Assembly: GCA_008632985.1 (NCBI GenBank)
Contig: QPGO01000048.1
Location: forward strand, 1-64,000
DNA: 64,000 nt
Source of the DNA: Psammoneis japonica
Taxonomy: Eukaryota
Direction of reading: 5' to 3'
Part shown: positions 3,670 through 61,765 of the stretch, piece by piece
Layout of the letters: every line of letters starts with the position of its first letter
Position numbering within the stretch: the first letter of the stretch is position 1
Translations under genes and position numbers: made by a program
Notes under the pieces: model-generated
The model's database searches: none
Seen by the model: only the letters and a program-made list of their open reading frames with translations
Told to the model about the DNA's origin: nothing

Positions 3670-5749
3670 ATGGCGGCGCAGCAACCAATGGCCAACCCTT
3701 TCGCGGGGGCTCCACCCGACAACCCCTTCGCCGCCGCCCCTTCTCCATCAGGTCCGACAACACAGACCGGAAATCCGTTTGACCCGATGGCACCTCCTCC
3801 GCAAGACCCGTTCGCTACGCAGACAGCGCCTCCGTCGGATATCGTGCCCGAACCCGGAGCTGGGATCCCGGCGAGCAACCCGTTTGCTCCTCCGACGCAA
3901 CAACAGCCAATGCAGAACCCGTACCAACAACAGGCAGCGCCTCAACAGCCCCAACCAGTTCCTCCTGAGACACAACCGATTGTAGGAAACCCGCCGTTCG
4001 GTGCCCAGCAGCCGGCACAGGCCAACGCTATGGCTTCCACGGCGTTAGTCCCTAGTCAGCAGCCCTCGAATCCTTATGGCGGCTTGGTACCGCCTCAGCA
4101 GCAAGGCCAGGTGGCATATGGGGCGCCCCAAAGCCAAGCAGTAGTACCCGCGGCTCAACAGAATTCTCAGTGGGCCGTGCCGTCGTCTGGAGGAGCTGGT
4201 GGTGCCACCTTCGATCCCTTTGCTCCTCCTCCCGCTCCAGTACCAGCAGCTGCCCCACCCCCTGCGCCTGTACCTGTACCTGCAGCTGCCCCACCTCCTG
4301 CGCCTGTGTCACAGGAGCTAGTTGTGACGCCCTGGGAACAAGGCCCGGCTTCGCAATACCAGCTCCCACCGGAAACTAATCTTACCGAGAGCGCTAGTGT
4401 CGCTCCACCCTTCCAAGACCATGGCCCAGGATTTGGTGGCGGACGGTCTGTTGCATCTGAACCAGAAACGCCGGCCAATCACCGTTCCACGCAAGAAATG
4501 ATTCCTTTTCAGCAACCTGGTGAAAATAATACGACAACGCAGCAGATTGTTAATTCTCCTCAAACAAAGTATGGTCGCATACTGGCTCAGAATGCTCCGC
4601 CGGGGGCATCGCCTCTACCCAAGGCGGAACTTGTGCGGAAGACTGGTTTTATTCTTGCCCGCGTCTCTTTCCGAACAATAGTTATGAAGAAATGGAAACA
4701 AGCCTTTTGGATTCAATATGGTCCTCACACGATGATTTGGTTTCGTACGCAAGAAGATTTTAACGATTGGCTCAACAACCCGTACCATACGCAATCGCAG
4801 CGAAACTTTCTCATCAAGCTCGCGGTCAATTTTGTTCATGATTTGTATCGTCCGAACGTTCGAGGATATCAAGTGACTCAGAGCCGCACCAAGAATTATG
4901 GACGAAAGACAATGAAGCAGTTCAAACTTGAACGATGGATGGACTATGGACCGACGATTGCTGCTGCCTTTGCGTCTCACGATCCAAAAGAAGTGGATGC
5001 GCTACGAGAAGCCATCGTGGAGTGCATGCGGAACACACCGCAAGACTCTGGCATCCGAGCCACAGGAGCAGTTCGACAGAACCATGGAAATGGCGAGCAT
5101 CACCATGAGATCAGTATGGTATGTAATTCTCGGTTGATGATGTGGTCTCTTGTTGTCTTTGCTAACATTTTCGTTTCTTGCGCTTTTTAGATTCAGACCA
5201 TCATGGAGCCCATCACGACGATTACGACGACGGGTCTCACTACAGCGGCTCCTATGCTCCGTCCTATGGTTAGTACAGTAGGCCCTGCGACCTGCGACCT
5301 CAATGAAGAGTTTTATGCGTGTTGCGACTTTATCTCATTTTTTGCTTTTTGTGTTTGACTCTCGAATGGAACAGCCGAGTCATCGCGTGGTCATCGTCAA
5401 TCTTCACAGGATTTGGGATACCAGGGAGGATCCGAAAGAACAATGGAAGCACCGGATGGCTGCTGCTGCTCCTGCTCCTGTTGCTGACTTGCTTGATTTC
5501 AGCAGCGACCCAGCTCCTGCTCCTGCGCAGCCAGCTGCGGCGCCTCCTCCGGCAGCAGGCAACTACCACTACGCAGCAGCAGGTCAACCTCAGCCTCCTA
5601 CACAACAATACCCGGCCGCAGGACAACCACAGCCTCCTGCACAACAATATGCTGCCGCGGGACAACCACAGCCTCCTCAGCAATACTACTCGGCCCCGGG
5701 ACAACCGCAGCCTCCTGCACAGCAGAGTTATGCCCAGTACCAGTACTAG
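3670..5749 (+). CDS. Pro/Gln-rich protein with NPF/DPF motifs and a PH-like domain; 3' exon structure uncertain
   Basis: Repeated NPF/DPF motifs (endocytic adaptor-like), globular region KKWKQAFWIQY...LREAI, intron after ~5118, and a downstream DLLDF motif with GQPQPP repeats. Confidence 0.65.
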
Positions 5750-18506: not shown

Positions 18507-19385
18507 CTAATCGCCGTCTCCATCGTCTCCATCACCTCCTCCCCCTGTCTGGACAACACGCGGAGGGAAGAGTTTTCGTAGTTTATCAATGCCCAAGCTC
18601 TGCAGCCATATTTTTCCCGGTCCACGAAGATGGGTGTGAAAGAACCCCTCCCCACCACAACATGCAGTCGCGCAGGTACCAACGAAACGAATGTCGAGCT
18701 GGACACTCGATTCAAAGCAAAGGATGCTATCAGTATCCACCAAGACGGCTTCTCCTTGCTGCAGAGTTCTCGTCACCACAGTGCCCATGGCCATGAGGAA
18801 GGCCCACTCGCCGTGTTCCAAACTTTGCACGATAAAGTCCACTCCACTACAGCAAAAGCCTCCGACGGACGACGCAGGGTTGAATCCTGCTCCAATGTCT
18901 GTTTCGACTCCAGACAAATCAATGGTGGAACAAAGAAAGGAGTCTCGCATGGCCAAGATGCGTCCTGAAGTTGACATGTTTATAGGCACGATGACACCCG
19001 GGTAATCTGGTGTCATGGCTATGTATCCGTCCTCGGTGTTGCTAATGTTTGTGTAAGTGAGCTGGAAGAGGCTGCCGCCACCGGCTGCGAGTTTCACCGA
19101 AAAGGAGAAAAGAATGAGACAAAGAATCGTACTCAAACAAACCACAAAAAGAAATATCGCACCAAGTCTACCAAATGTCTTTTTCAATCCAGCTAGTTTA
19201 GCGTCTAGCTTCACGTGATCAGACATGTACGCCATTGCGCCACTGAAGCATGTTACCGAGCGCTGGGCTCGGAGAGGAAATTGCACAATCTGCGCATCCG
19301 TTCCCAGAATCTCGTAGATGGGTATCCCGTCCTCGTAACTCGGGGCTTTTGACGGCACCCAGAGTTCAAAACCAGCTAACTCCAT
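18507..19385 (-). CDS. AIM24/TRAP-like (TIGR00266) family protein, paralogue 1
   Basis: YEILGTDAQIV...GAMAYMS...GG.LF...GGEGFFHTHLRGPGKIWLQS; in-frame intron ~19085-19165. Confidence 0.85.
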   Translation of the reverse strand: MELAGFELWVPSKAPSYEDGIPIYEILGTDAQIVQFPLRAQRSVTCFSGAMAYMSDHVKLDAKLAGLKKTFGRLGAIFLFVVCLSTILCLILFSFSVKLAAGGGSLFQLTYTNISNTEDGYIAMTPDYPGVIVPINMSTSGRILAMRDSFLCSTIDLSGVETDIGAGFNPASSVGGFCCSGVDFIVQSLEHGEWAFLMAMGTVVTRTLQQGEAVLVDTDSILCFESSVQLDIRFVGTCATACCGGEGFFHTHLRGPGKIWLQSLGIDKLRKLFPPRVVQTGGGGDGDDGDGD

Positions 19386-19636
19386 TGCCAAGACAACCAA
19401 AGTATTGTCAAGATTGGACCAGAGGTAGGTGACACCTGTGTCAGCAGTCAGCAATAAGAAAAATTGTGGGAAGAAGATAAGCTTATTTACGTGTACCGTT
19501 TTTGGAACGCAAAGATTTCTCATATAACTTATCTTCATATCTTAATAAAATAAATTCAGTGGGAGCAGCAGGATTTTGCCGGTCTGAATCTGACACTGAA
19601 CGACACCAACAGCCGACACCCAACACGCAGTTCTCG

Positions 19637-21048: not shown

Positions 21049-22014
21049 ATGATGGCGCATGCAGCTGCTGCAATGGCTGAAGGAGATATCGATTTAAGCG
21101 CAGAAGAGAAACAGGGTCTAGTGGAAGTGAAAAACAGAGATCCGCTCAATTCAGGATTTATATGGTGGGAAGCGCCGGTGGCGCTAAATGAGGAGCACAC
21201 CTCGTGCCGCCGCATCTGGTCAATATCCGGTGCGTATGCGATGGAAAAAGTTGTTCCATCTCCTATCTGACCCTAATACTTGCTTTGATTTTCTGTCTGA
21301 CTTGCACTGGCAGGTCATGACATGCAAATTCTCACCTCGACTCTTCCAACTGGCAACAATGTTTTCACGGAAGTCGGATCTTTCCTATTTATGCACCCGG
21401 GCATGACATCCGAGTCGGAGCTCACCCTGTGCACCAAGGGAGGCTGCGGAGAGGGATGCGGTCGAATCATGGGCGGGGAGAGCTGTGTCAAGCTAATTCT
21501 GAAAAACGAAACAGGCGAGGAGGGCTATGTTGGACTCACGCCAAACTTCCCCGCGAAAGTCATACCTGTGAGGTTCGGAGACACTGTACAGTCCAACTCG
21601 GCTCTCTTTGCACAGGGCGGCTCAATCATGTCGCAGTTTGGTCAAGTCGAGGTTGGGTGCGATCTTATGTGTACCTGTGCTTCGTGTTGCGCCCTCGGCC
21701 TCTGTCGCCAGAAAATCACGGGAGAACGGGATAGCATGGCTTTTCTCGCTGCCGGGGGAACCATAGTACAACGCCAATTACAGAATAACGAAAGGATAAT
21801 CGTGGACAAAAACTCAATTGTAGCCATTGAAGATTCTGTTGATGTTGGGTGTGTGCAGAATGGACGCTTCTGCATGGGTTGCTTCGGCGGAGAAGGCTGT
21901 TTTTCCACTTCATTGAGCGGACCGGGCGTCGTGTATCTACAGAGCATGAATCTTTCCAAGTTTCGAAACGCAGTTCAACAAACCATTTACGACAATGAAG
22001 AGATGGATAGGTAG
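21049..22014 (+). CDS. AIM24/TRAP-like family protein, paralogue 3 (1 intron)
   Basis: EVGSFLFM, GLTPNFPAKVIP, GGEGCFSTSLSGPGVVYLQSM. Confidence 0.85.
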
Positions 22015-23324: not shown

Positions 23325-24139
23325 GCCCATAAATTTCTTTTCAATTCAATAGCATTTCATTTCCACCTTTGTAGATAATGTATGATATGCACATCATTTG
23401 GTTTCCAAGCATACAGTAGTTCCCGTCGAGCTAGCTGCACGTTCGGATACAATTAAAGCCACTTTCATACCACTCTCTAAATGCCTCGAGCTCTATTCTA
23501 TTGCAGAGGCGAGACAGTTGTAGGTGTTCCTCTGCTGCATTGTCGAAGGCTCTCTCCAGCTATAGAGGGCCCTGTAGCCATGGTAGTAGAAGTAGATAGC
23601 TCTAGAGAGTGACACCGGTGGTGCTACCGTAGAGGGAGGAGAACCTACAATAATTGGGCACTCTCGAAAGGCTGGTCGTTTCAGGCAGAGGTGGGAGCAA
23701 ATAAATGCCCATGTGGATTTGCGCAGCGGGGTGATTCTTTTTTCAGAGAAAAGGACCGCACCCAACCTTCTCACTCGGCGAGGAATCATCGCGGCGGCGT
23801 CTGGGAGTGTACATGCCTCTCTTAGAAGTGCACAGGTGGACCCCTGGGAAAAAGCGGGGCCCACCCGCTAAAAATCTTAAGCCCTCTCATGGCCAGCAGC
23901 TGGCTGCTCTAGAGAAGAAGTACAGTGTGGCAGGGCCCCACCAGTGGAGGGCCTCCACTCTAGAGTTGTCGGGGGGTGTCCTCTTGAGAGAGAGGGATGA
24001 TGTGCTGACGTCTCCTTGATCCTTGTCTTGGGACGTCTCCAGCTGCTGGCAGAAGAATCATCAGCAGCTGGCGCCAGGGCAGCGATGGTGGAATCCACCT
24101 GTGTCTCCCCCCTGACCTGCCCATGAAGTGTCACGCACC

Positions 24140-27100
24140 CCCATGTTTCTGATGTGTTGTGTGGCATTGACAATTGCACTGGACATTCCAGAGCCGTTGT
24201 GATGGGCTTTGCTGCTGATGATTGTGACATCCAGTTGCCTTGGTCTCTTCTCACAACTTTGTTGTCACTGAGGTCTTTGTTTGTTTGACCTTGCACTGCA
24301 GCAATTGCGGTCAAAAGGAGAATGGATTGAGGCTGTGAGACTCATTCCAACAAGTTGACAAAGCACGAGATGCAAGAATCATGTGCAAGAGATGTGCAGT
24401 TTGGGCTGTTGATCCCCATGAACAAGAGAGAGTCAATGATGCGCAAACTTTGTGGACAAGATTTGATGAGTGATTTGAGTGCAACAGTTGGAGAACAAAG
24501 CAGAGTCCCTGGAAAGGGCCATTGAGGAGCAACCGTGCTTTTTGCTCTGTCTTTCACAGTGGGTGGGTCAACATTCAACAGCTTTCCTTGCCCGCGGTGT
24601 GAGATGTGTGCTCAAGTGGGGTGCTTGACAGCTGACAACAGTCTTGCCAAGATCATCAACCATGCAAGCAACAAGAAGTCCTTCACTGACAAGGGTGGCA
24701 GCAAGAAGCAAAGCAAAATGAGGAGGGGTGCTTCTTCTTGTTCTTTTTTCTTCTTTTTCTTCTTCTCAAGCCTCAAGAAAACACAATCATGGCAGCAGCA
24801 CTGGGGTCAATGCAGAGGCCAGATGCCCAGCACATGCCAGCTGTGATGGCAAGTGGAAGCATTGCATTGCAAACCCAGAGAGTCAGAACTGTCAACCAAG
24901 GTCAGGCCATGGTGGCCACAGAAGCAGTTGTGATGAGTCCACCGCAGCTTCCAAGGCTGAGGTTCAGAAGGTCAAAGAGGTTGTGGCAACCACCAAGACT
25001 GAGAGTGCAGTGGCTGCAACAGACAAGGTTAAGGTGGTGGCCATGGCAGCCATGGCCATGACAGCCATGGTGTTCTGATGAGAGAACTCTCAAGGAGGTG
25101 GACCCTGTGCTGTGGAAATCTGGCTGGAGCAGCTTTTCCTCTTGGTGGCTGATGATGTGTCCCAGTGCATGGATGAGTTGGTTGTTGTTGCAGTGTGTGT
25201 GTCATGCTGGTCCTGGAGAATTTGACATGCTGGGGCTGGAAGCAAGCAATGCACAAGACACAAATTTGCTCACACAGTGCACAGGTTCTGCTTGGAATGT
25301 CTCATTTTTATGGATCTTGGTCATTGTCAAAGAACAGCAGCATGACAATCATTGGAGCTGTCTCCACATGAAAAAAGAAATGAGGACAAAGCTGTGCAGT
25401 TGTCATGCATTGTGGGTTGTTGTTCTTGTGGATGGCAACAAAACGGCAGAGAAAAAAATCATGTTGTTGCAGCCATTGCTTGGAGAATGTGAGTGCCCGG
25501 GTGGAGACTGCTGTTGGAAGATTTTGCTCCTGCCTTTGAGCATGGTGTTGATGGCAAGAACAATGTGCTGGTGGATTGTTTCTCTTGATTGCCTTGCATG
25601 GATCCCACTGTGGAAGAGAGGCATGCTCCAAACAAGGGCAAGTTGATGGACCTCAAGGTGATCAACACAACACTGCCATGCTGCCACACAAAGAGGATGA
25701 AAGGCCCAACAAGCAAACTGTGTCCTGTTTCTCTCCTTTTCATGAAGAATCTTCTCACTTTTGCTCCTCTTGTGTGGATGATCATGAGTTGTTTGAGTCA
25801 ACAATTCCCACAACTGCCCAACTCTTGACAAGATGCCAAAACCTGCTGCAATCCAACAAATCCAAGAGCATGAATTTGTTGACAACAAATTGACTGACAT
25901 GTGTTGGTGTGGTGACCAAAGTGTTTTGTGGTTGAACGTGTGAGTCAGCATCCTGGGATCTGTTGTCATGCTCAGCTGGCTGATTTGCCAGCTCTGTGGA
26001 AAATTTCATTCCTGCTGCTTTGCTGGCCACCTGACTGGGTGCAGCGGCACTGTCATGATGTGTTGGGACAAACAGGAGTGCATCAAATGCACTCTGCTGT
26101 TGGCTGTTGGCACACTGTTTTGTCATCCTGTCTTGCACTGATGTTGTGAAGAGCTTCATTGCCCTGATTGCCAGCACTTGAAAACATCAGGTCCTGGTTG
26201 TGGGAACCCTCTGAGCATGAAGCATCATCGCTGCCCTGACTGAAGCTGCTGCAGATCTCACTGGCCCCAGGAAGATTGAAGTCCAAGGTCAAGAGACATT
26301 GAGTTCTGTGCATTGACATGCATTGATGTGGTTTCCACTGTTGAGGAACTCACCCAGATTGAAAACAAGACTCCTTGCCACATTGCACAGCAGCTTGGAA
26401 ATTGTTGGTTGTCTCTCTTGTCCAAATCATTGCATTCATGACAATGGCAGTGGGTTTGCAGGTGAAGATCATCTGCTGCTTTTGAAATGTGCTGGTGTTG
26501 ATGATGAACCTGATGCTTTGTGCAGTCTGCAGGCCAACGCAGTGTGTGAATGTGCACATCAAACTGTGGGTGACATCTTGTGCACATTGTCTCACACTTG
26601 TCTTCTGCAGAATGTTGGGCAAGCAGCAGGCCAGCCAGCTGACAACCCATTGGGGTGACTGCAATGCATGCCATGTGGTGCACAGCACCCCATGCTCTCA
26701 AAACATCTTCAAGAGCAATGGCACTCCAATGTGATGCAATTTTAAACCTGCCAGCTCTGACCACTGTTCAAGAATGTCATCAGGCTCTTGTCAAAACAAA
26801 CCTGTGCTGAGAAAAAACTTGCAATTTTGCAGTCAGCAGTCAAACACTTCTCAAGGTGTCAATGATCCTGCCAAGCTTGAGCCACAAGATCATGAGCCAC
26901 ACCCTGCAGTGCAAGCACACACCAATGGGGCTGTTGTGGTCCAATGAGCACCTCATGCAGCATGCAGTGGAGTGGTGGACTGACACTCAGTGCATCGTGC
27001 CACATCACATCTGAGACCAAGGGCATTTTCCCCAACATCTGGGTTTCCCTTTGCTCTGTGCACAGAATTTGAATTTGAGTTCTTGAAATTTTTGAATCCC

Positions 27101-27212
27101 ACATGATCTGATGATGTGTGGATGGCAATGACTGATTGCAACCTTGTCACCTTGGTCTCTCCTTGCAACTTCATTGCCGCTGAGGTCTGTGTCTTGTTTG
27201 ACCTTGCACTCC
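24140..27212 (+). mobile_element. Degenerate Ty3/Gypsy LTR retrotransposon relic
   Basis: gag knuckle-like CPAH...WKHCIANP (~24820), protease-like MDLG (~25310), RT-like FAGH.DWVQ (~26020), integrase CIHDNGSGF...QANAVCECAHQTVGDIL (26323-26658) in PR-RT-IN order, and degenerate direct repeats at ~24237-24297 and ~27149-27210. Confidence 0.7.
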
Positions 27213-27799
27213 ACATGCAACTGACTGGAGACAGATGGGTGGGCTGGACCAGGGCCAGACAAAGTTGAGGTTTGGGCTGATCACTTCCAAAATGATTGAG
27301 TTTGCAAGAGAGCGATCTTTGCACATGAAACAGTGTCCAACAACTTTTGAAGGCTTCTGCATCATGCAAACAACACACAAAACATCTAAATTTTGCATTG
27401 CCTCAGAAGTCATTTTTTGGTTGGAAAATGACTGCACCTTCTGACCAATGGACTGGCTGTTTTTTCATTGCTTTTGTCATTGATCTTAAGAACAATTGAG
27501 TGCCAGTCTCTTCATGTCTTCAATTGTTCACCATCCTTGGTGGACATGCAAGATTCATCAACAGCAAGCGTGCTGCCATCAAAACTTCAAATCACAGTCA
27601 AGACAGAATCATCAAGAAAAAACCACCCAACCCTTGTTTCAATGCCTGACTCTGCAACTGTGGTGCAACACAACCCCAGATTTCCACTGCATTGTTGAGA
27701 ATTGGAACGGTGTGTTGCACGGTTGTCTGATGTGCTGCTGTGCTGCCTGTCTCACATTGACATTTTCATCTGCAGCAGGAGGAACCTGAGAACCTCCTT

Positions 27800-29300
27800 C
27801 TTGGAGCACTCTCATGCTGCACCCAGAATTGCTGAGAAACTTGCTCAATGCTGTGGCATTCCCTTTTGTTTTCCTGCCATCAAGTTTCCTCCTCAGACAC
27901 TGTTTTTTTTTCCTTTGGTGACTCCAGACAGAGCCACACCTGCCCCCACAATCCCAGCTCTCTCTGAAGTCAAAGTTGTTCACAATCAGGCTCTCAGCTG
28001 CCCTCCACTGGAGCTTGCAGAGGTGGCTGTGTGGTTCATGCCATTTTGCACAAAACTGGGAGCTGGGTCATTTGCATTCTCTTGTGGCTGATTCTCAGAG
28101 CTTTTTTTCAAGAACAAAACCCATCACAGAGACAGGAAAGTTGGCAATGCATGTCTCTTTCTTTGGAGCCAACTTGAGACTGACATCTCCCTGTTTTGTC
28201 CCTTTTCTCATGCCTCAAGATGGTGGGCTCAACTCATGAAACACAGGCTGAGCTGACCCAACAACCATCAATCCTCATCAACTCCAAATCTTCCAAAGAA
28301 ACACCTTTCTTCAGCTCAATTCCCCCAGAAACCAACAGGGCTGCTGGCCTGCTTTTCTCAACATCTTCATTGCAGATTGTTGCTTAGAGGGCAGCAATGG
28401 CAAAGCTTGAGAGGTGGGCCCACATGTCTGGATTTGTTGCCAGCTTGCTTGACATGGGCATCTGGACAGGCTGCAAACAAAATGTCCTCAGGCAGCTCAT
28501 TCTGAAATTTCACATGCTCCCACCTTGCATTTTGCCTCCTTTTCTGCTTGAGGTTGCTTGCGTAGATCACAATGTTGTGGGGGCTGGATGTGGCTGTACA
28601 AGAGATTTTGAGCATGTGTCCCCTCTTGCACCTTCTTTCAGAGCTTCACTTTGGCATTTCCCATGGGGTCAATGAGGTGGTCACATGCCAAGCACACTTT
28701 GGCAAAATGCTTGTTGCCTTCTCCATGTGCTGGGTCACCCAGCATGGCTTTTGCATTCCTGGCTGCTTTTTGCTTTTGTGGTGCCAGCATTGGCAACCAG
28801 CATGGAGGGTGCTAGAACAAGGAGCTTCATTGGGGGGTCACAAGGGCTCATCTTTCAAGAAGATTGTGGCAACTCTTGTGTCAAGAGAGCATCAAGGACA
28901 AGGGTGCACATGGGCTGCTGCTTGCATTTTGTTGAAAAAAATGTGAGGCGCTTCACGCAGATTTGGTTGCATGTGTTCATTCACTGAAAAAAGTGTGAAG
29001 CTGCTTTTTCATGTTTTTGTTCAAAGCTTTCCAAGTGATCAATGCAGATGTTGATGTTGGCTGAATGACATTGTTCAAATGTCCACAATGCTTTTCAAAA
29101 ACAAGTCAGCAATGCACCACAAGATGTGGGCAATGAGAGCCATGTGCTTTCATTTTTTCCTTTGTCAGACCATCTGCCTCACAGTTCCATTTTGACACTG
29201 ACACTGTAATTTACAAGCAGGTGCACACTTGGTCTTTTCCTTGCCAGCACCATGGCTGTTGACAAAGCAAGAAGCAAGAACAAGCAGCAGCCAAGACTCA
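27800..29300 (-). mobile_element. Degenerate Pif1-like SF1 helicase remnant (Helitron-like element)
   Basis: Fragmented motifs: FVNSHGAGK (Walker A-like, ~29250), IVD..MSF (~29080), PPLKLCHCCPL (~28400), KLQWR..ESLIV...W (~28000), VALSGV (VALSRV-like, ~27930). Confidence 0.55.
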
Positions 29301-31419
29301 CAAGAAGAGACACCAAGTCCAAAGAAGGCAAAAGAAGGAAAAGTGGCCTGCATGCCAGAGAAAAAGAGCCCTCCTCTTTGTGTTCAAACAATGGCCCTCA
29401 CAGTGTCACTCAGCCAGCTTGTGTTTGTGGACAAGGAAACAAGATTTGCTTTCTGGGGGCAGCTGAACAAGGGTGTGAGAAACAGACACAGCTGGTGGGT
29501 TGAGAGAAGGATGAAGATCTAAAGGAATTGGTTGGTTGTCCTGACTTGTCTGACCACAAGTGATTGTCTGACCACAATTGATGAGAACAATGCCAAGCCA
29601 CATCTTCAACTTCATCAGTTTGCATGTCACAAGTTGGGCAACAAGCCACAAAAAGACAACAAAAGTGCAAGACAGAGTGCTTTGTTGTTGATGATGAATT
29701 TGTGTTTGACATTGACATGTGCACTTTCTGCTCATTGCACTGGACCACTTGTGAGCAGCAAACAAGTGCCATTGTCAAGTTGACCAGAGAGGTGCATGAT
29801 GAAGATGATGCTGACCCAGCTCTTGTGCATGTGCCACCACACCATGTCTTGAGTTTGCTGGCAACAAACTTCCAAAGGAAGCCCAAGAGCATTGCAGGTG
29901 TCCTTCTCTCTAAGACTGACAAATGCAACAACATTCATCACAATTCTGGCATCTGCTGGCTCATTGTTGCTCTGTGCTTGCAAAGACAGTGAAACACAGC
30001 CATCCACCAGCAAAGCATCCACTCCAATTTGCACTGAAAAGTTCATCAATCAGTGCATTTGGGGAGCCTGCAGTGGCAATGCTGTGCCATGCAGTGTGCC
30101 AGCGGAGAGCAGAGAGTGAGCAAAAATTGCACTGGCAAATCACAAAACTTGCCAACAGGGCAGATGTTTTTCAGGCAGCTGCTGGCTGGCCCACCTGCCT
30201 GGCCTGGCTGGAGATGCCCCCACCCTGGCAGCTTCTCAAACAGCATGGGCAAAGCTGCATGATGACAACACTCAAGTGGACAGCAATTCCTTGAGTGAGT
30301 CTCCCTCTTGTGGCTCATGACTTTGACTTTGTGAGCTGCCTGCACAAGAGAAGTTTGCAAGCTGCACAGTGCAGCTTTTCATTGCCCTCCCTGTGCAGCT
30401 CACAACTTTGTGCACTGCACAAAGGAAGTTCACAAGCTGCGTGATGCAATGTTTCATGATGGAAGCACCCAACCTTGCTTGCTCAAAACAACACAAGAAA
30501 CAGACCATGACAGCAGCAGCAACAGCCAATGCCAGATTGTGCCACCAAACCTTTTCCCACCAAGAACACCAATGCATCACATGCCACAGCATTTTGCTCT
30601 GACAAATGCATCCATGAAAAGAGAGGTGAGACAAGTCAAAAATGGACGAAACTTCTTCTTTGACTTTGCTGTCATTCCTGCTTAAATCTCACAACTTTAA
30701 CAGCTGATGCTGATTTGCCACCAAACTTTTCAGGCCAACAATGCCAACATGTGACATGCTTTGTTGCACTCAGAAAAGTGCACACAAGAAAAGAGAGGTG
30801 AGAAAGAAGTCCAAAAATGGACAAACACTCCTTCCTCATGCTGAGATTTTGCAGACATTCACACTCTTTTTTCACAACTGTTGCATTTCAATTTGTTTGT
30901 TCTCAACAAATTGAAGAGTGCAGACCATTGCACAGATGATTGAGACTCGTTGTGATTTGTGATGCCAAGTGTTGGGCAGAGTTGGTTGGGTTGGCAAGCA
31001 GCCCACAGCAGGGTGAGGCAGGCTGGAGATGATGACGATGAGCAAAAGAGGATCAGGGGGGCAACTCAAGTGTGTGGAGCACTCATCATGGGAATCTGCA
31101 ATCTGCCACTTTTACAAAGGTCCAGGAACAACTGGCTGATGAGGTTGCTGTTGTCCTCTCTAAACATTTGAGTGACTGCCTGGGTTGGCTGACTTTTGAC
31201 TGCAGCGGCACCTGTGCAATTTCTTTCTGCAAAGATGTTCATGTGGCTTGAGATCCCCCACCTCTGAACATTGAGACAGCCGACAAGAGCCAAGGGGTTG
31301 CTCTCTGGCAAGGCATTGATTGATGCTTCTAAGGAAGGGAGTGTTCTTGATTCAGCAGACCCAAAATCTCAGTTGCAACAAGGCTTGGCTTCACTCAAAA
31401 GCCAGTGCATGTGAATTGA

Positions 31420-31662
31420 CTGCTGCTGGCATGACTGCTGCAACCACTGCCATTCTGACTGCTGCCATTGCAACTGCTGCTGTTGCAACTGCTGCCATTT
31501 TGACTGCTGCTGTTGCAACTGCTGCAGTTTGCAACTGGCACTGTTGTGAGCACTGCCATTTTGACTGCGTTGCAATTGCTGCCATTGCAGCCATTGCCAT
31601 TGTGGCAACCACGACAATTGCAACTGCCATTGTTGTGACTGCTGCCATTGTGACTGCCACTG
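31420..31662. repeat. Degenerate minisatellite of (G/T)CAACTGCTGCCATT / TGACTGCTGCCATT-like units
   Basis: Recurrent actgctgccatt / actgctgctgtt units visible in the sequence. Confidence 0.8.
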
Positions 31663-32049
31663 TTTTTAGACTTTTGTTGTTGCATTTGCCATCATTGGTG
31701 GGGCTGCAACTGTGGCTGTTCAGACCCTGCTGCTGTTGAAAAAGCTCAATTGTGCTCTTGCTTTTTGTGTCAATTGGCAATTTTCTCCACATCTTGTTTG
31801 TTCTTGAAATCCCATTTTGCCTGACTGCACCCTTCCTCTGTTTCCAGCACCCTCACACAAATGCTCCTCTTTTGCTTCACTGACAAGCAACTCTGCCATC
31901 CTTGCTTGCCATGACTTGCTTGAACATTTGCTGGTGAGCCTGGGGCATTTTGCTTTCATGCCAACTCTTCTTTGGCATCACACTTGTGGCCCCAAACAGG
32001 GTTCCTTGTCCTTTGATGTGGTCTGATCTTCTTCTGCCAGAGCCCTTTC

Positions 32050-33210
32050 TGCTGCCACCACTGCTGGTTCCACCCATGGCATGCTGGGGTGACAGGTGCT
32101 GAACAGTGAGTTCTTTAGATGTCAGGGGTCCATGGCAAAGGAGGAGGTGGGTCAACAGGGATGTGTGGTGGGAGGGTGGCATGGAGTGCACTGAGTGATG
32201 GAGAGAAGAAAGATGAGCCAAGAGTGTGGACAGACAGTTGGGAGGAAGAGTTGTCAGTGACAGTTGGGTGTCAAAGAAGGAGAGTTTGGCATGCAGAGAG
32301 GTGGTTCAAGAGAATGACACTGAAGTTGAGGCTGAGGATTTGTGAAGCCCAAAGTTGGGGGGTTGCACGGTGTGATGGGAGGTGCCAAAGTGGTCTGGTG
32401 ACACTTGCTTCTGGGTGATGTTGGAGTGGGTGAGGAAGTTGGAGGGGGGTGGGAGCGAGCATTTGAAGGCAGAAAAGGAAGCTTGGGAGTTGGAGAGGGA
32501 AGATGGATCAGCCCAAGGTGGCTTGGGAGGGAGAGGAGGGATGCCGGAGGAGGATGTTGTGGTTTGTGGTTGAGACACCAAAAAAGAAGATGTGGAAGTG
32601 GCGTCCAGGCCAATGCCACCTGGGTGATCAAAGGTGAAAGGGAGGAGGAAAAGTCCTGCTTGATTGACAGTGTCAATGATGTCAGAGCAGCAGGCGGATG
32701 ATGCAGTGCGACCAATGAGCTTGTCCCGTGTGCTGCTGAGGCGAGCCTTGTTTGACAGGTTTTCAGGGGCAGGCAAACCAGGCGCAGGAGGTGGGGGAGC
32801 TGGCAGTGCAGCAACATCAATGGCTGGAAATTGGTGGCTTGATGGGGCTTCCGACGGTGCAGAACCAAGCACAAATTGAGCACCAATGTTGGCGGGGTGT
32901 TCCAAGGGGTGGTCGTCCACTGACAAGAAGACCGGTGGGGTCTGGATGAACTTGTTGTCGAGAGTGGCACAGACCACCAAGGGGGGCCAGTGTTTCAATG
33001 ATGGTGCAGATGATGGTGTCATGGATGTGGTTTGAAAAAGGGCTCTTGTGCATTTTGGGGCAGGTGAAAGCACGGTCTCCGCAAGGGGCGGTCTGGGCAG
33101 GTGTGACCGAGTGGACAGTCGTGTTGGAGCAGATCAGGAGAAACAATGGGGAGCCACAGCTTGAGGAGAAGGAGAAGTGTGAACAGGGTTGGTGGGAGTT
33201 GGTTTGAGGC
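32050..33210 (-). mobile_element. 3' fragment of an RLE-type (CRE-like) non-LTR retrotransposon
   Basis: CCHC-like PCGDRAFTC.K.HK...SNHIHD, followed by HPANIG (RPAD-like), AIDV and LLPFTFDHPGGIG restriction-like endonuclease motifs. Confidence 0.6.
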
Positions 33211-33528
33211 ATGTAGTCGGGAGAGAGAGTAAAGGCATGAGGATCGTTCCAACACTTTGTTATTTTGGCGAGTTGACGACGGCTCCTCTCGCTCGCTTTT
33301 TATTTGTTCTTCTTCCGCACCACTTAGGTACAGCTTACAGACCTCCCAGTCATTGGGAGTGCGCGGCTGCCGCGGCTTTATCGATCGCTTTTGGCTTTTC
33401 CCCCTCCCCGCCCGCCCCGCGGCCGCGGCCGCGCTCATTCATACATCGGTGTTGCCGAACTTCCAACATTTATACAAAACAAACAACACACCACTCCACT
33501 CAGCAAACAGCGACAAGCAACCACAGAG

Positions 33529-38275: not shown

Positions 38276-38862
38276 ATGTCGGTTCCAACAACGCTTATCA
38301 GCGGTACAATTGCCTACCTTGTTCTTTTTGGTATCCTTATTGGATTAGTATTTGCCTCTTTGGCAACTGGCATGCTGAATAAGGACAATGCAGCGTAAGT
38401 TTCAACGATTCGCTTGTGACTGACTGTCGGCGAGCTTTACGTATGATGACCGTAGCCGCATACCACGAGCATGTTGTGGGTGAACAAGACGATGCTTCGT
38501 TCCAAGCAATATCTCTTTAAGTTGTTTTTTGTCTTTCTAACGTTTTCTCGCTGTTTGTCTTTTTTCTTTGCAACAGTGTCGGACACGTAGTAGTATCAAT
38601 CGCTGTTTTCTCCATGTGGCTTTTCTGGTGAGTTTGTTCCAAGAAAACGATGGCGGCATTTGTCAATACGGTGTTTTGCTTTCAAAGGCAAACTCAGGAC
38701 GACAGGACGTTTTTATGTAGAGGGCTCGGAGAGGGCTCGTCGTTCGTATGTATTGTCTTGAGTTCTAAAGCACCGTTTGTTGTTCGATGAACTGCTTTTC
38801 ACAGGCTCTGCGCATGGATGCATCAGTGGCACCCGCTCATTCAACCGATATACGAGGAATAG
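38276..38862 (+). CDS. V-type ATPase V0 subunit e (3 exons)
   Basis: Spliced product ...SIAVFSMWLFW/LCAWMHQWHPLIQPIYEE*, two TM helices, GT-AG introns. Confidence 0.88.
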
Positions 38863-39196: not shown

Positions 39197-40945
39197 TTAT
39201 GAGCCAAGTTCCTCGGTGAGAAAATATGAGATTGCTTGATTCCACCAATTTGGTAGGGGCGCTTCAACGTCAATGTCATATTCAGTGATGCACAATCATG
39301 AGGTATGCAGCAAGAATCGCTGCTGCTCACCATCCACCGGCAAAGCGGCAACATGGGCCAACGAGTCTCTGTCGTCGCTTGTACTTGAATAGTCGGTGTC
39401 AAAGAGAATGGGGAATCCCAATCCTTCGGCACAGTGAACTCACACTTGATGTTTCCTTCCAGCACGAGTTTCGATTCGAAGACACACAGGGCAGAATCAC
39501 TGCATTCTTCAACTGCAGCAAAGGTAGACTGGGGTGTGCCGACTTCCCGTGCACTGGAATGTCAATCTCCCCATGAAAAGGGATTTCCTTTGCACTGGCA
39601 GCTGCCACAGTCAAGCAGCTCTTTTTTGCTTTGCAAAAAAAAAGAATTCAGCAACAAGCTTTGCATTCATTTCATCAGTTTTTGCAAGTGCAGTGCAGCC
39701 AGGTGTCCTGCGATCAATTCTGTGAACAAGGCCCCTTCTTTCATGATTGAGTGCTGAAAGCGGGACATTGAAATGATCCAGGAAATCCTCCAAAGATGCA
39801 TCAAAGCATGTCCTGGATTGCTCTCACCCTTTCTTTAAACTGGAAGATCTTTGCAAAGAAAGAATTCAGCAACAAGCTTTGCATGCATTTCATCGGTTTT
39901 GGCAAGTGCAGTGCAGCCAGATGTCCTGCGATCAATTCTGTGAACAATGCCTCTTTCTTCATGATTGAGTGTTGAAAGCAGGACATTGAAATGATCCAGG
40001 GCATCCTCCAAAGATGCGTCAAAGCATGTCCTGGATTGCTCGCACCCTTTCTTTGAACTGGAAGATTGCATTCTTCCAGCCGAAGTCTTGCATCTCCTGT
40101 TGAAGCATGCCACACCAGGCAGTTTGATGCAACCACTGCACTCCCAGATCAATGCAAAAATTGAAAATCAAGGCCACACAAGTCTCAAAGCAGTTCTTCC
40201 ACATCCTTGACTTGTGCTGCTCAGCCCTTGCATTGAGTTGCAGCCCTTGCATGATGGCATTTTGACCCTCCTTTCTTCTTGATCAGTTTTCCATCATTTT
40301 CCAGCTTTCTCCAAAACTGGGTTGGCTTGTGACACAGTGAGGGAGCCATCAGATGCAAGGCACAAAGCTGAGCACACCAGCAACAAAACACCATGACATC
40401 AGGGCATGTTTCAATGGATTTGGACATGTCCCAAGCCAGCAGATGAGCTCCCCGGATGCAGCATCGTCAGCCAGACAACCAGACCCTGTGAAAGCACGCA
40501 AAATTCCAGACAGCTCAGGCTTGTTGTTTTCTGCTGCATCAAGTGATGTGCATTGACCAGGTCTTTGGGTGAAAGTTCAAGTGGCAATGTGTTGCAACAA
40601 ATCCAGAACAGCGTCAGTCTCACCAGCCATGGTGTGAACTTTCTTGGCATGGTCAGATGGGTCATTCATCAAAACAAGCAAACACAAGGGCTTGCTGCTG
40701 CTGCTGCTGCTGCCACTGTGCAAAGCACTTTCACAACCCAAAGGCTGGTCCATGGTGCACTCAGAGATGTCTGCATGATGACAAACCAACTGCTTTGAAA
40801 TGTCTTCCTTTCCAGGCACATTTGTGCTGCCTCTGACACCATGCCCCAATGCTCAACAGCTGACAATGTTCAAGCATCAACATTGAAAAATGGGGCCAGA
40901 GCAGCTGACAACCATTGACATCATCTCTGTCTCAATCTTCATCAT
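39197..40945 (-). pseudogene. RluA/RluD-family pseudouridine synthase pseudogene with internal tandem duplication
   Basis: KLPGVACF (motif I), GIVHRIDRRTSGC (motif II, twice), ETRAGRKHQV*VHCAEGLGFPILFD (motif III), RFLLHTS*L...VEAPLP.WW; in-frame stops and frameshifts; 5' end approximate. Confidence 0.85.
39641..40066. repeat. ~218-bp-period tandem duplication
   Basis: aaagaattcagcaacaagctttgca...aactggaagat occurs at 39641-39848 and again at 39859-40066. Confidence 0.95.
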
Positions 40946-41039
40946 GGGATTCATTTGTTGAGAGACCATGCCCGATGAGCGCTCACAGGGGGGGAAAGCA
41001 GGTGCCTTCTTCATTTGTTTTCATGTCCAGCTGTGCCAG

Positions 41040-41998
41040 CTTTTCATGCCATCATGTTGTGGTGCTGAGTGTTGCTTTCAGTGTTTGATTGTGTGGTGTT
41101 TGGTGTGTGGCACACAGGGCCAGAATTGTGCCCCCATGCAGGCCAACTTAGCAAGGACTTGCACATTTCAGAGCAGCAGAACAAAATCCAAAACTTGCTG
41201 CTCTCACTGTGCCTGTGCTCATGGCAGCCTGAGCCACAATTGGCAGCAACCTCTGTCATTCAGTTGGCAGCAACCTTCATCAATTGGTGGCCACAGGCTC
41301 AGGCACTCAACCTCCCTCTCAGCTTTCAGTGACACCCCAATCTCAACAATCTCAACGAAGGGAACCTCCATCAGCTGGCAGTGACATCTCTGTCAACTGG
41401 CAGCAACCTTCATCAATTGGTGCAAACAGCACCATTTGTGCCACACAATGGGTGACAACCATCAACATCACCTCTGCCTCAACCTCAATGTCCCAAAACT
41501 CATTTGCTCAAGGACCGCGCCTCTGCCAACCTCTTGGCACATCCCTCTCTCATGCAGCTGCCAGGGGTCTCTGGTTTGTGTGTTCTCAGGTGAAGTGGCC
41601 TTTCCAACTTGCTTCTATCCACCCCCTCTTTGTGCTGTCACTTTTGTCATGCTGAGTGTTGCTTTGAGTGTTTGATTGTGTGGTGGGGTCCAGTGCATGT
41701 GTGGTGTGCATCAAGCAGGGCTGTTGTCATGCCCACATGGACCAATTCAATGAGGACTTGCACATTTCAAAAAACACAAAATCCAAAACACCATTCTCAC
41801 CATGCCTGCACTCTTGGCAGCCTGAGTCAATTGGCAGCAGTGACCTCCATGAATTGGAGCGATGCAAGTGACACCAGCACTTGTGCCATGCAACAGGCAA
41901 CAACTTCCTCCTCAATCTCAATCCTAAAACTTGTCTGCCAAGGGACTATGCCTGCCGAGCTCTTGGCTTCCATCTCTCTAGCAGCTGCCAGGGCTCTC
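41040..41998. repeat. Degenerate nested direct repeats, TpA/CpG-depleted
   Basis: gctgagtgttgcttt.agtgtttgattgtgtggtg at ~41064 and ~41651; tggcagcaaccttcatcaattggtg at ~41265 and ~41398; cagctgccaggg at ~41555 and ~41982. Confidence 0.8.
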
Positions 41999-50945: not shown

Positions 50946-51347
50946 TTTGATATAATGAAGTGGAAGGTGCTTGAATCGATCGGAATACGGTGCTATGACG
51001 ACTCGTCCAATGTTAGACGATAACATTGAAAGCAACCTTCAACCGACAGAAACAATTTGCCGGGTCCAGTCGTCCCCCACGCCGCAGTGTGCAGATGATG
51101 CGTTCTGGAGAATTCTGGAGCTCGGGCCTGCTCGAGCGAAAACGGCGGCAGTTCTGTTGGCTACCGTAAAGGCTACGTAGGAATTGGTAATAATTATTGA
51201 AAGTACTAAGTCCCTACGAATGTTCTACATACGAATTCATGGTACTCTCTTTACAAATGTACACAAAAAGTGATAGTGATTGAGAATTGTGGCAACGGTC
51301 ACGACACCACAAAAATCTCTTCGAAAACCGCGCTCGTTTTCGATCAC

Positions 51348-51639
51348 AACTCGTCGTCTCGCACGATGTGTTGTTGTTTGCCAAGCCGGAAGCCGTAATC
51401 TCCGAGGATGGCTCGCCCTTCCTCTGGATTGAGAGCTCGCTCTTGTTTGGTATTCCACAACTCATTTTGCTTGATGGTGTGTTGTCTCTCTTTTTCAACT
51501 CGTCGTCTCGCACGAGGTGTTGTTGTTCGCCAAGCCGGAATGCCGCGATACCCAAGGATGGCTCGCCCTTCCTCTGGTTCTAATTGCCTGCTCTTGTTTG
51601 GTGTTCCACAACTCATTTTGCTTGATGGCGTGTTGTCTC
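51348..51639. repeat. ~149-bp-period tandem duplication
   Basis: aactcgtcgtctcgcacga...gtgttgtctc at 51348-51488 and 51497-51639. Confidence 0.95.
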
Positions 51640-54678: not shown

Positions 54679-55533
54679 ATGAGCATGCTCATCAACTCGT
54701 TCCTTGTGCAAGGCGCGGGCGCAGCGCTGGCCAGTGGACTGAACACCGTTTCATCCCTTCCACTCGACGCTCTTGTTCTCATGTCTCTCGGAGCGGACTT
54801 TCCCACTTTAATTAACACTGTCGACAAAGCCAACATTGACTGTCCTGTCCATCTTACCGAGACGTATGGAATCATTGGGCATGATGATGATTTGGGACGC
54901 AACGTTGAATTGATGGAAAAAGGGCGAGGCCAAGAGCATGGATTTCAGGGCGGCAGTGGCGGGCAAGGATGTCTTGCACCAGCATTTTCACAAGGAGCGG
55001 TTGCTGGACACATGGATTCTGCGGTCCCTCAAGACGCATCCTCTTTGATGGTGATTGCCGACACATCTGGTGCTTTTGCAGAAGTGTCGGGAAAATTGCC
55101 TCTGCACTGTGGTGGGATCACAAAGGAGGCTTGGTTTCTAAACAATGGCGAACTCGAGAAAGTCCCTTGCTTTTGGGTGGCCAGCCAATCGCGCGATTGT
55201 CCAATCGGTGCACCAGCGTTCAAGGGCGATGCCAGTGAGGCGACAGAAGCCCCAATGTCAAAGCTCCCTTCAGGATGGCAACCCAGTGGACAGGTCGGTC
55301 TGTTTCCATGTCATGCACGCGGTGTGAATCATTGCGGTGCCGAGAATGTAGAAGTGGATGCCATTGCATCACTTCTTTCAGAGAAGGGTTCTGCTCCTCA
55401 CATTTTTGGCATGTTTGCTCACGGCGAACTCGGTCCGTCTAGCTTCAGTGGGTTCATGAACGAGAAGAACGACATTGAGTGCGAGAAACACAGCATGACG
55501 AGCATTTTGTCAATCCACACGTCAGTGGGTGAG
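54679..55533 (+). CDS. FIST-C domain protein, interrupted 3 codons before its stop by the Copia insertion and hypermutated
   Basis: LFPC.ARG...E...IFGMFAHGELGP (FIST-C). The native end GCG TCC AGC TGA lies after the 3' TSD at 62118-62129. Confidence 0.75.
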
Positions 55534-55880
55534 TGTGACAATGTTCATGTTTGCATGTTTTTACAACAACATCGGACCTCCACGATTCAAATCAGAGATC
55601 CAAGATTCGAACCCCGTGTGCGATGCTCAGTCTCGAATCCCGCGGAAGCCGAGTCACGAATGCGATGTTTGTTCCCAGCTTCGCGCTTGTTCAACTTCGC
55701 GTTTCCTTTAGATGGCAGCTGCATCTGCTCATAAAAACTGCTCACAATCTTTCCAATGCACTGATTGTCACCTCTCAACTTTTGGTGCAACAAAGTTGCT
55801 GATTGATTGTTGTGTCGCAATCACAGCTTTTAATCACTGAAAGTGCAGACGAATCTTAGAATTCCGGCTACTTTCCCACA
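55534..55880 (+). repeat. 5' LTR
   Basis: tgtgacaat...ctttcccaca; 338/347 identical to the 3' LTR by manual alignment. Confidence 0.97.
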
Positions 55881-55954
55881 CGCTTCCTCTGCGAAACCCA
55901 CAAGTTAAGTCAATCGATCTTAAGCTCTCGATTCTACTTCACTCTGCTGTCACC

Positions 55955-57462
55955 ATGGTCACGCAGACACGAACCGCGGCTGCTCTAGCTGCCTCTGTTG
56001 CAGCTCCCGCTGCTGCACCCGCTGCAGCTCCCACCACTGCTGCTGCTCCGGCAACAGCACCTGCTCCTGCAGCCGCTCCAGTTGCTCCTGCACCTCCCCC
56101 AGTCGTTCCTCCCGGTGCACCTCCAGGAGGAAGTGGCGGAGGAGGTGGAGGAGGAGGCGGAGGTGGAGTCCCACCAGGTGGAGTCCCGCCAGGTGGACCA
56201 CCATTGGCACCTGTGCCACCACTGCCGATCTTCGCGTTGACTCCAGGTCAACACCGTCCCAACAACTTCATCGACTGCGGCACATCGCAAGGCCTCAAGC
56301 TTTGGAACGCCGCTGCTGCACCGCTGCCACACGAGTTCAACGGCGATTCAGAAGGTCTCAAACGGTTTTGTGAGACACTCAGTCAACGAGCTGCCGAGGC
56401 AGGATGGAAAACAGGGGCAAGAGACATGCTTGCCATTCCCGACGCGAATGGAACTCCACGAGATCTCATCTCCGAGTGCGGGCTGCTCACTCTGCAGGAT
56501 GTGAGAACCCACGCGAACACCTTCGCGAATCCACCTGCGCGACAAGCACAGAACAATGTGCAGATGGCCGAGGCGATCTCTCAATCCCTTGCGGAGGAAG
56601 CAAGAGACAAGACATTGGCTGAGATGGATTCCCACACGATCAATGGAAATCAAATCGGCACACTGTTCTTCAAGCTGCTTGCGCAAAAGGCCATCGTTGA
56701 CACACGCTCTGCCACCAACTGCTTCCGCGAGAACTTGTCAAGCCTGGACACGTGCATGGCGGCTGTTGGCTCGGACATCGAAGAGTTCAACAAGTGCGCC
56801 AAGCTCAACGTTGACGGACTCCAAGCTAGAGGAGAGCAGTGCGACGACCTTGTCATGAACCCATTCAAAGGATGCACCGCAGCTGCTGACGAAGCATTCG
56901 TCAAGCACATCATGTCACACAAGGACAGGTGCGACGACGGTGAGGAATTCACGCCGACACAAATCATGACGTTGGCACTGAACAAATGTGTTTGACCTCA
57001 AGCGCGAGAAGAAGTGGGGAGCACTGTCACCGGCTGAAGAGCAAATCGTCGCGCTTGCAGCCAAGGTAGACTCCATTTGAGGATCAGAACCTTCAGCCAT
57101 CTAAAGCTTTGAAGGCCAAGGCTGGTTCAATCAAGGAAAGAAGCACACGGTCAAGGAAGACCAAGACCACTCCACGTCAGAGACAGAAAGCGGACGAAGC
57201 CTGGAAGAAAGTCCCGCCCAAGGAGGACGCTCCCAAGAAGACAGTGAACGGTCATCAGTGCTGTCACAAGCGCGTCAACAATCGCGACTGTCACTGGTGC
57301 CCACATCACACTGCTTGGGTCATGCACTTGCCTGATGATCCGGGCAACCAAGGCTGTAGACTCCGCAAGCAACAGTCTGCTCCATCCACAGACACGTCGG
57401 ACAAGAAAGTCTCCTTCGCAAGTGCTGTCTCTGCCATCCCAAACGAAGTGGATCAAGAGTGA
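55955..57462 (+). pseudogene. Copia gag (frameshifted near 56990 and 57078; no Tyr in the two main ORFs)
   Basis: FALTP...IDCGT..GLKLW, PFKGC..AAD..FVKHI, WKKVPP, WCPHH..W..H motifs of CoDi-type gag. Confidence 0.85.
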
Positions 57463-61722: not shown

Positions 61723-61765
61723 GACGTTTTCGAGTCATCATTCCACCCGACATTGTTGAAGGGAG

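Follow-up and report, generated by a model that had tools for sequence, protein, structure and literature searches.

Near-complete loss of TpA and CpG in a region of the Psammoneis japonica genome probably reflects two regional mutation processes

The closest described system is that of the chlorarachniophyte Bigelowiella natans. According to the main text of the preprint that reports it, 230 of 231 mutations found in an integrated giant virus and virophage of mutation-accumulation lines were A-to-G or T-to-C, and all GC-biased mutations fell on TpA (Mettrop et al., bioRxiv 10.64898/2026.01.13.699255). The rate was about 6 × 10−7 per site per generation, more than 1000 times the background, in some lines only. 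The genome also contains 124 clusters that are poor in TpA and rich in CpA+TpG, and the authors proposed an ADAT2-like DNA adenine deaminase (bioRxiv 10.64898/2026.01.13.699255). Here we analyzed 64,000 nt of the pennate diatom Psammoneis japonica (GenBank assembly GCA_008632985.1, contig QPGO01000048.1, positions 1 to 64,000 of the forward strand), referred to as the window. Three zones of the window are nearly free of TpA (TA below; likewise CG for CpG). Two are islands that have lost both TA and CG, a 9-kb one (island 1) and a smaller one (island 2). The third (54866–58650) has lost TA and kept CG; it covers part of a Copia long terminal repeat (LTR) retrotransposon and the end of the host gene beside it. 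Coordinates are collected in Table 1.

We found no report of TpA-specific hypermutation in the literature besides the Bigelowiella preprint. Term searches of the accessible text of papers on diatom transposons, on a long-read reassessment and on mutation rates (PMC2806351, PMC8147415, PMC4504042, PMC6604790) gave no mention of it.

Loss of TA and CG in island 1

At the flank rate of 0.0413 TA per nt, about 382 TA were expected in island 1, and 20 were observed (Poisson log10 P = −132.5). For CG, 58 were observed and about 525 were expected. The observed/expected ratios in island 1 and the flanks were 0.03 vs 0.60 for TA, 0.11 vs 1.00 for CG, 1.80 vs 1.10 for TG, and 1.86 vs 1.14 for CA. A first-pass annotation of the sequence had estimated about 20 TA by eye, which was exact (20 in 23962–33213). 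It had staked its reading on a TpA ratio different from that of the flanks, and the two ratios were not alike. The TA-free gaps within island 1 reached 1,434, 1,098, and 1,069 nt, whereas the largest gap outside the three zones was 208 nt.

In the nine 1-kb windows from 24001 to 33000, the TpA ratio was 0.00–0.06, compared with 0.4–0.9 in most of the window. The CpG ratio in these nine was 0.00–0.24 (about 1.0 elsewhere), and the TG and CA ratios were 1.52–2.16. The Bigelowiella clusters had been delimited as runs of three or more consecutive 1-kb windows with a TpA ratio of at most 0.43 and a CpA+TpG ratio of at least 1.52 (bioRxiv 10.64898/2026.01.13.699255, main text). All nine consecutive windows of island 1 fall within this definition.

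The edges of island 1 were sharp. The last TA of the left flank is at 23961, and the next TA at normal density is at 33214. The island starts about 640 nt past the ribosomal L28 open reading frame (ORF) and ends about 115 nt ahead of the next long ORF. Sharp boundaries stopping short of genes, as the first-pass annotation described them, therefore apply to island 1; they do not apply to the Copia zone, 665 nt of which lie within the host gene. CG fell from 56.8 per kb in the flanks to 3.2 per kb in the core, in line with the rarity of CG noted there before. Both edges had no TA yet kept part of their CG, so that the TA-free zone encloses the CG-poor one. The Copia zone and the left edge of island 2 repeated this nested pattern, which the first-pass annotation had also claimed. 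The margins with TA loss only measured 634 and 846 nt in island 1, 691 nt in island 2, and 665 nt in the host gene.

The composition agrees with transitions of TA and CG in place. TA, CG, TG, and CA together made up 23.7% of the dinucleotides in island 1 and 23.6–24.1% in four flank segments; transition of TA and CG into TG/CA predicts such an unchanged pyrimidine–purine sum. We then took the flank sequence, converted 95% of its TA and 93% of its CG in a simulation, and compared the result with the island 1 core. The simulated ratios were 1.87 for CA and 1.85 for TG, and the observed ones were 1.86 and 1.88, respectively (r = 0.98 over 16 dinucleotides). The simulated GC content was 0.465, compared with 0.477 in the core. 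The conserved sum and the reproduced spectrum bear out the proposal that the sequence converges on TG/CA. In the island 1 core, CpG loss was accompanied by a reciprocal gain of TpG/CpA, as methylated-CpG decay would give. When only TA was converted, the simulation matched the Copia zone, with a CG ratio of 0.85 predicted and 0.80 observed. This accounts for the CG ratio there, indicating that the Copia zone is essentially without CpG loss.

Post-integration change at the Copia element and its host gene

The Copia element is young. It spans 55534–62112, and its LTRs are 347 nt long. The two LTRs differed at nine positions in about 347 nt. Eight differences were TA in the 3′ LTR against TG (three) or CA (five) in the 5′ LTR, the ninth was CG against TG, and there were none of any other kind. 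Thus, the A:T-to-G:C changes were eight of nine, all eight lay on TA, and both TG and CA arose, depending on the strand. About 280 LTR positions that are neither TA nor CG showed no change, whereas 8 of 14 TA had changed. Per site, TA was lost about 16 times faster than CG (8/14 vs 1/19). Since the LTRs were identical at integration and now differ at TA sites, the TA-to-TG/CA change came after integration. The earlier proposal that TpA is lost first and over a wider zone fits this order, which the LTR pair records in place.

The coding sequence behind the 5′ LTR was affected as well. About 91% of TA was lost from gag to protease. In pol residues 1–386, Tyr was 0%, compared with 3.2% in 40 homologs, and Cys and His were 4.1% and 4.7%, respectively. 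All three conserved Tyr columns in this part were replaced, by His, His, and Cys (CAT, CAT, and TGC), whereas the rest of the pol ORF kept 23 of 32 conserved Tyr. The gag ORF translation also had no Tyr when read by eye, without a scripted count. These compositions agree with the Tyr-less, Cys/His-rich ORFs that the first-pass annotation had attributed to the loss of TAA and TAG. Together, the LTR asymmetry and the replacement of Tyr by His or Cys give the direction as TA to TG/CA, on DNA and on both strands.

The element was inserted three codons before the stop codon of the host gene, the remainder of which lies at 62113–62129; the reading frame now continues into the LTR. The best relative of the host protein was 55% identical over nearly the full length, and no Pfam family was found. 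The final 665 nt of the gene (54866–55530) contained 3 TA, compared with about 27 expected, and CG was normal at 49.6 per kb. All four conserved Tyr residues in this part were replaced: Tyr 104, 161, 181, and 236 became His, Cys, Cys, and Cys. The motif changes were GSEYGF to GQEHGF, LHYGGITK to LHCGGITK, VPYFW to VPCFW, and VNQYG to VNHCG. Tyr80, at the last TA ahead of the zone, was intact. The loss of TA and Tyr from the host gene indicated that the process is regional rather than bounded by the element, and that it damages unique genes. These results showed that the TpA process acts on both strands of DNA that is already integrated, regionally and with spreading into the flanks. Its rate is far above the background, and it is confined to three sharply limited zones.

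The 34 TAs surviving in the three zones were used to define the sequence context. The base before TA was never A and was a pyrimidine in 82%, and the base after it was a purine in 82%. Y-TA-R made up 23 of the 34 survivors but 16.8% of flank TAs (p = 6 × 10−11). Because TA is self-complementary, both biases amount to one rule: an A before a purine is a poor target, and 5′-TAY is a good one. This suggests that adenine is edited best in 5′-TAY, as a preference and not absolutely. The rule implies that Y-TA-Y should yield TG and R-TA-R should yield CA. The product was as predicted at eight of nine sites with a known ancestor (4/4 in the LTR and 4/5 Tyr codons after a pyrimidine). In the island 1 core, TG and CA were sorted into eight classes by their flanking bases; the sum of squared errors over these classes was 52 under the rule and 167 under a 50:50 choice. 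For example, YTGY occurred at 42.6 per kb, with 39.7 predicted by the rule and 33.8 by the null. Back-mutation from TG/CA was considered as a source of the Y-TA-R excess and rejected: by summed class counts, new TAs would fall about evenly over the four classes. TG and CA did not occur in strand-coordinated runs along the zones (runs tests, z −1.3 to +0.6) and were no more clustered than in the flanks, which argues against long processive editing of one strand. TadA-type adenosine deaminases act in the U-A-C context of the anticodon loop, and ADARs favor a 3′ G. If they apply here, these contexts would favor a TadA/ADAT-like enzyme over an ADAR-like one.

Content of the islands and other features of the window

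No mobile-element or viral protein was recognized in island 1. Among its 94 ORFs of at least 60 aa (23900–33300), a Pfam scan gave nothing above noise. The longest, 32309–33133 (−), had no homolog at E ≤ 0.01 among the proteins of 151–482 residues searched, and Rfam gave 0 matches in the window. Neither tblastn with 120 Copia proteins (nothing below E = 0.01) nor a Copia profile hidden Markov model run against six-frame translations detected Copia homology in the islands. The best tblastn match, a weak likeness to the integrase core at 40564–40427 (−), had E = 0.021 among 120 queries and was not relied on. In Bigelowiella, the preprint's main text remarks, most TpA-depleted genes have no annotation (bioRxiv 10.64898/2026.01.13.699255), and island 1, without identifiable domains or homologs, matches this remark.

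A transition-tolerant search of the window with purine/pyrimidine words found no large repeat in island 1. The sole repeat was one of about 70 nt, with copies at about 24226–24300 and 27138–27210, both inside the island. Some of the differences between the two copies are TG-vs-CA double differences, the kind that would arise if a single ancestral TA or CG had become TG in one copy and CA in the other. A tandem array of about 13 degenerate 15-nt units lies at 31415–31672 and causes a false period-3 signal. On the purine/pyrimidine sequence, the period-3 signal was uninformative on the origin of the islands. In island 2, the 28 ORFs of at least 60 aa gave only Pfam noise, apart from the duplicated pseudouridine synthase fragment.

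Two further sequencing runs, X1 and X2, were compared with the window. All runs come from one sample, so their independence is limited. X1 contigs span the islands and match them except for 0.26–0.37% differences in pieces of island 1. Forty differences were itemized and 28 more were counted beyond these; 27 of the 40 were in island 1. These included two TAs of the window that are CA in X1 (28563 and 29207, both R-TA-R, as the context rule predicts), one TG that is TA in X1, and five CG against TG/CA. This polymorphism is a weak sign of recent or ongoing activity. The summed X1 depth was higher over parts of island 1, where many short contigs are 90–95% alike; this is not a copy number, and the short contigs hint at related copies elsewhere. 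Run X2 shows GT..AG joints and covers the flanking genes, but its depth over the islands is close to zero, from which no inference was drawn. Its contigs skip 182 and 177 nt with GT..AG ends at 38394–38577 and 38626–38804. The skipped stretches resemble introns removed by splicing from a gene at 38.1–39.0 kb, an AT-rich part. Run X2, which carries the label 'DNA?', appears to be RNA.

Copia elements elsewhere were compared as well. P0029 and P0004, which are Copia polyproteins encoded in other public assemblies, had Cys or His at 19 of 28 and 18 of 33 conserved Tyr columns, respectively, whereas four controls had 0–1. Both also contain stretches of 300 residues without Tyr. From the best 80 of 310 confirmed metagenome Copia loci, 78 made up the environmental sample; it is biased to intact copies and so says little. 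The four with the lowest TA (L042, L045, L046, and L048) were moderately poor in both TA and CG throughout, with a TA ratio of 0.17–0.19 in the lowest 1.5-kb window, a CG ratio of 0.21–0.28, and a TG/CA ratio of about 1.6. The conserved Tyr residues were mostly kept in L046 and L048.

The genes of the window have long open frames and complete domains. For a flanking kinase ORF, the nearest named relatives are in raphid pennate diatoms (Nitzschia, Cylindrotheca, Fistulifera, and Bacillariaceae), with about 50% identity over the full length, which places the window in a pennate diatom and not in Bigelowiella. Two divergent genes of the AIM24 family, at 18507–19541 (−) and 21301–22014 (+), are about 1.8 kb apart. 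The flanking gene regions also contain a 39-nt in-frame repeat of four Pro/Gln-rich units (5528–5722) and a pair of tandem repeats of about 150 nt (51347–51639).

Table 1. Coordinates of the features discussed in the text
Feature	Position	Strand	Remarks
Island 1, TA-free zone	23962–33213	.	20 TA and 58 CG in 9,252 nt
Island 1 left edge, CpG decay intermediate	23962–24595	.	634 nt; 0 TA, 12 CG (18.9 per kb)
Island 1 core, TA and CG both erased	24596–32367	.	2.6 TA per kb; 3.2 CG per kb (25 CG)
Island 1 right edge, G-rich on + strand	32368–33213	.	846 nt; 0 TA, 20 CG (23.6 per kb)
Island 2, TA and CG erased	39391–41924	.	core 40082–41924
Island 2 left edge	39391–40081	.	2 TA, 13 CG kept
Tandem duplication of about 218 nt	39637–40066	−	each copy with a PseudoU_synth_2 (pseudouridine synthase) frame fragment; in the TA-free edge of island 2
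Conserved host gene, about 290 aa	54685–55533	+	83 relatives at E ≤ 0.001
Target-site duplication GTGAG	55529–55533 and 62113–62117		perfect, 5 bp
5′ LTR	55534–55880	+	6 TA left; 8 TA-to-TG/CA differences and 1 CG-to-TG difference from the 3′ LTR
TA-retaining patch	55831–55986	+	156 nt; end of 5′ LTR and leader
TA-free Copia half, gag to protease	55987–58621	+	10 TA vs about 109 expected; CG kept, 63 per kb
Copia pol ORF	57463–61722	+	gag_pre-integrs, SH3_retrovirus, RVT_2; TA normal after about 58650
3′ LTR, unedited	61766–62112	+	14 TA, 19 CG

Mechanism, alternatives, and comparison with known systems

We consider it likely that the islands are nuclear DNA of a pennate diatom hit by two region-targeted mutation processes. 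The first would be a fast hypermutation of TpA to TpG/CpA, that is, an A:T-to-G:C change at the A of 5′-TA on either strand of integrated DNA. It would cover silenced mobile or repeat-like DNA and extend about 0.6–0.9 kb into the neighbors. The A would be edited best before a pyrimidine (5′-TAY), with Y-TA-R sites lasting longest. The second would be a decay of CpG to TpG/CpA, about 16-fold slower, lagging behind and occupying a narrower zone, as expected of methylated-cytosine deamination in silenced DNA. Both processes, run to completion, would lead to the end state of island 1. We infer that the TpA process is an enzymatic deamination of adenine to inosine, with an ADAT2/TadA-like enzyme of the kind suggested for Bigelowiella, that its function is genome defense, and that methylation drives the CpG loss.

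A more far-reaching proposal is possible, though we consider it less likely than not: diatoms may have an adenine editor directed at chromosomal DNA, in effect a 'reverse RIP' (RIP, repeat-induced point mutation). It would recognize newly inserted or silenced DNA, change A to G in 5′-TAY on both strands at hundreds to thousands of times the background rate, and spread to the genes nearby. Since stramenopiles and rhizarians would then share it, such an editor would be an ancient genome defense of the SAR group (stramenopiles, alveolates, and rhizarians), and it would edit A to G naturally in double-stranded DNA.

Several observations weigh against the two-process explanation. Because about 60% of the CG has gone from the edges of island 1, these edges are not just flanking DNA without methylation into which the process spread; the best interpretation is that the slower CpG loss is lagging there, rather than that the flank is untouched. 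The 156-nt patch that keeps its TA within the edited Copia zone lacks explanation. It has a flank-like TA density (6, or 7 including the boundary TA at 55986/55987), whereas 60–90% of TA is lost on either side, and its three TAs in the LTR part are the same as in the 3′ LTR. The patch appears to be shielded by something. Because island 1 contains no recognizable mobile-element or viral protein, the targeting of foreign DNA is shown only for Copia. The context rule also has exceptions: in the 5′ LTR, three Y-TA-R sites were edited and two other sites survived, and in the three smaller zones, where the uncertain baseline dominates, the rule model was no better than the null. The X1 differences in the left flank (3 in 763 nt) are about as frequent as in island 1, and there are none in island 2. 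Among the 78 environmental Copia loci, no strong TA depletion was seen (lowest 1.5-kb window ratio, 0.17), and none showed a clear loss of Tyr to Cys/His.

ADAR-like A-to-I editing of retroelement RNA before reverse transcription, followed by insertion of the edited copies, would leave both LTRs alike and end at the element ends. Instead, the LTRs of one insertion, copied from one template, differ at eight TA sites, both strands are affected (three TG and five CA in the LTR), and the edits run 665 nt into a single-copy host gene, beyond the target-site duplication. The surviving TAs, mostly TAG and TAA, also go against the 3′ G preference of ADARs. One affected element is indeed a retrotransposon, and ADAR-type enzymes prefer a 5′ U, as the preprint's main text notes (bioRxiv 10.64898/2026.01.13.699255). 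RNA editing is refuted for the Copia zone, and we give it almost no chance. A non-mutational origin, either selection or compositional constraint against TA and CG or a sequencing or assembly artifact, is extremely improbable. TpA is mildly under-represented throughout the window, as its flank ratio of 0.60 shows, but conserved Tyr was replaced in two unrelated proteins and every LTR difference lay on a TA or a CG. Over 9 kb, where 0 of 94 ORFs had a Pfam match above noise, the pattern shows no dependence on reading frame, and the islands are also present in the X1 contigs, which differ by 0.26–0.37% and come from the same sample. The LTR asymmetry, the Tyr loss, and the absence of ordinary substitutions exclude RNA pre-editing, RIP-like C-to-T change, and compositional selection.

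Two other alternatives accept the mutations and assign them to a different chemistry. A single deaminase acting on A at TpA and on C at CpG, without any part played by cytosine methylation, could explain why both losses occur in the same tracts and why the young 5′ LTR has one CG-to-TG change. The ADAT2 enzymes of amphioxus and Trypanosoma deaminate A and C in DNA, according to work cited in the preprint (bioRxiv 10.64898/2026.01.13.699255). However, the TA loss and the CG loss are not coupled, either in location or in rate. The Copia zone and the host-gene flank have lost more than 85% of TA, and their CG loss is only an effect of normalization. The main text of the preprint reports no C-to-T excess in the Bigelowiella lines (bioRxiv 10.64898/2026.01.13.699255), and CpG methylation is documented in diatoms, at about 6% of the Phaeodactylum genome (PMC6604790, in a passage citing earlier work). 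Such a dual enzyme is therefore unlikely. The same mutation process could also start from thymine: the T of 5′-(R)TA would be marked by a TET/JBP-type dioxygenase or some other thymine-modifying activity, for example as 5-formyl- or 5-hydroxymethyl-uracil mispairing with G, and T would become C, which looks the same as A to G on the opposite strand. Because TA is its own reverse complement, all results fit T-to-C in R-TA equally, and oxidized thymine mispairs with G. To our knowledge, there is no regional thymine-modifying activity of this kind, and the context of a 5′ T and a 3′ pyrimidine resembles the U-A-C context of TadA-type deaminases. The authors of the sole experimental precedent read it as adenine deamination (bioRxiv 10.64898/2026.01.13.699255, main text). 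We regard thymine chemistry as a poor candidate and prefer adenine deamination at TpA combined with slower CpG decay.

If this explanation is correct, it has several consequences. Diatoms are major primary producers of the ocean. The process, known from one 2026 preprint, would be extended to a second, ecologically dominant lineage, and it would be seen to strike retrotransposons once they are integrated and to harm a host gene in passing. The rule that TAY is edited and Y-TA-R spared can be tested on any candidate enzyme, and a natural enzyme editing chromosomal adenine would be of technical interest. In such genomes, LTR divergence would overstate the age of elements. Edited tracts would contain long false ORFs without Tyr and would be missed by repeat annotation. 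The local drive from A:T to G:C would run counter to the usual AT-biased mutation.

The pattern can be compared with three better-known systems. It is like fungal RIP in that dinucleotide-specific transitions strike mobile or repeated DNA to saturation, leak to single-copy neighbors, and destroy coding capacity. Unlike here, RIP makes TpA from CpA/TpG by C-to-T change and raises AT; in the window TpA is destroyed, and GC rises or holds. Accordingly, TA and conserved Tyr have gone from the edited parts, and TA is normal in the unedited 3′ LTR and reverse transcriptase region, with no sign of C-to-T change creating TpA. Methylated-CpG decay changes CpG to TpG/CpA in silent, repeat-like DNA, which matches the TG/CA excess and accounts for the CG-free cores. 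The TpA loss, which is faster and wider, is beyond its reach. Animal ADAR and APOBEC editing is likewise a deaminase-type hypermutation directed against mobile or viral nucleic acids. It acts on RNA or single-stranded intermediates, is strand-biased, and is fixed at integration, whereas the changes here came after integration, on both strands, and extended into the flanks.

The closest likeness is to Bigelowiella. In both, TpA changes exclusively to TpG/CpA, on both strands and regionally, and TpA-poor, CpA+TpG-rich clusters are the long-term trace; in Bigelowiella, the rate is orders of magnitude over the background, and reverse transcriptase and DDE domains are enriched among affected genes (bioRxiv 10.64898/2026.01.13.699255, main text). 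The hosts differ, a chlorarachniophyte (rhizarian) there and a pennate diatom (stramenopile) here. The dated target is an LTR retrotransposon here and a giant virus or virophage there. The depletion here is near total, with a TpA ratio of 0.03, compared with 0.45 in the Bigelowiella viral region, and CpG is erased too. Spread into a host gene and the TAY preference, both found here, are not mentioned in the main text of the preprint, its supplements aside. What is new here is thus the lineage, the proof of post-integration change on an LTR retrotransposon, the saturation, the slower CpG decay on top, the host-gene spread, and the TAY preference.

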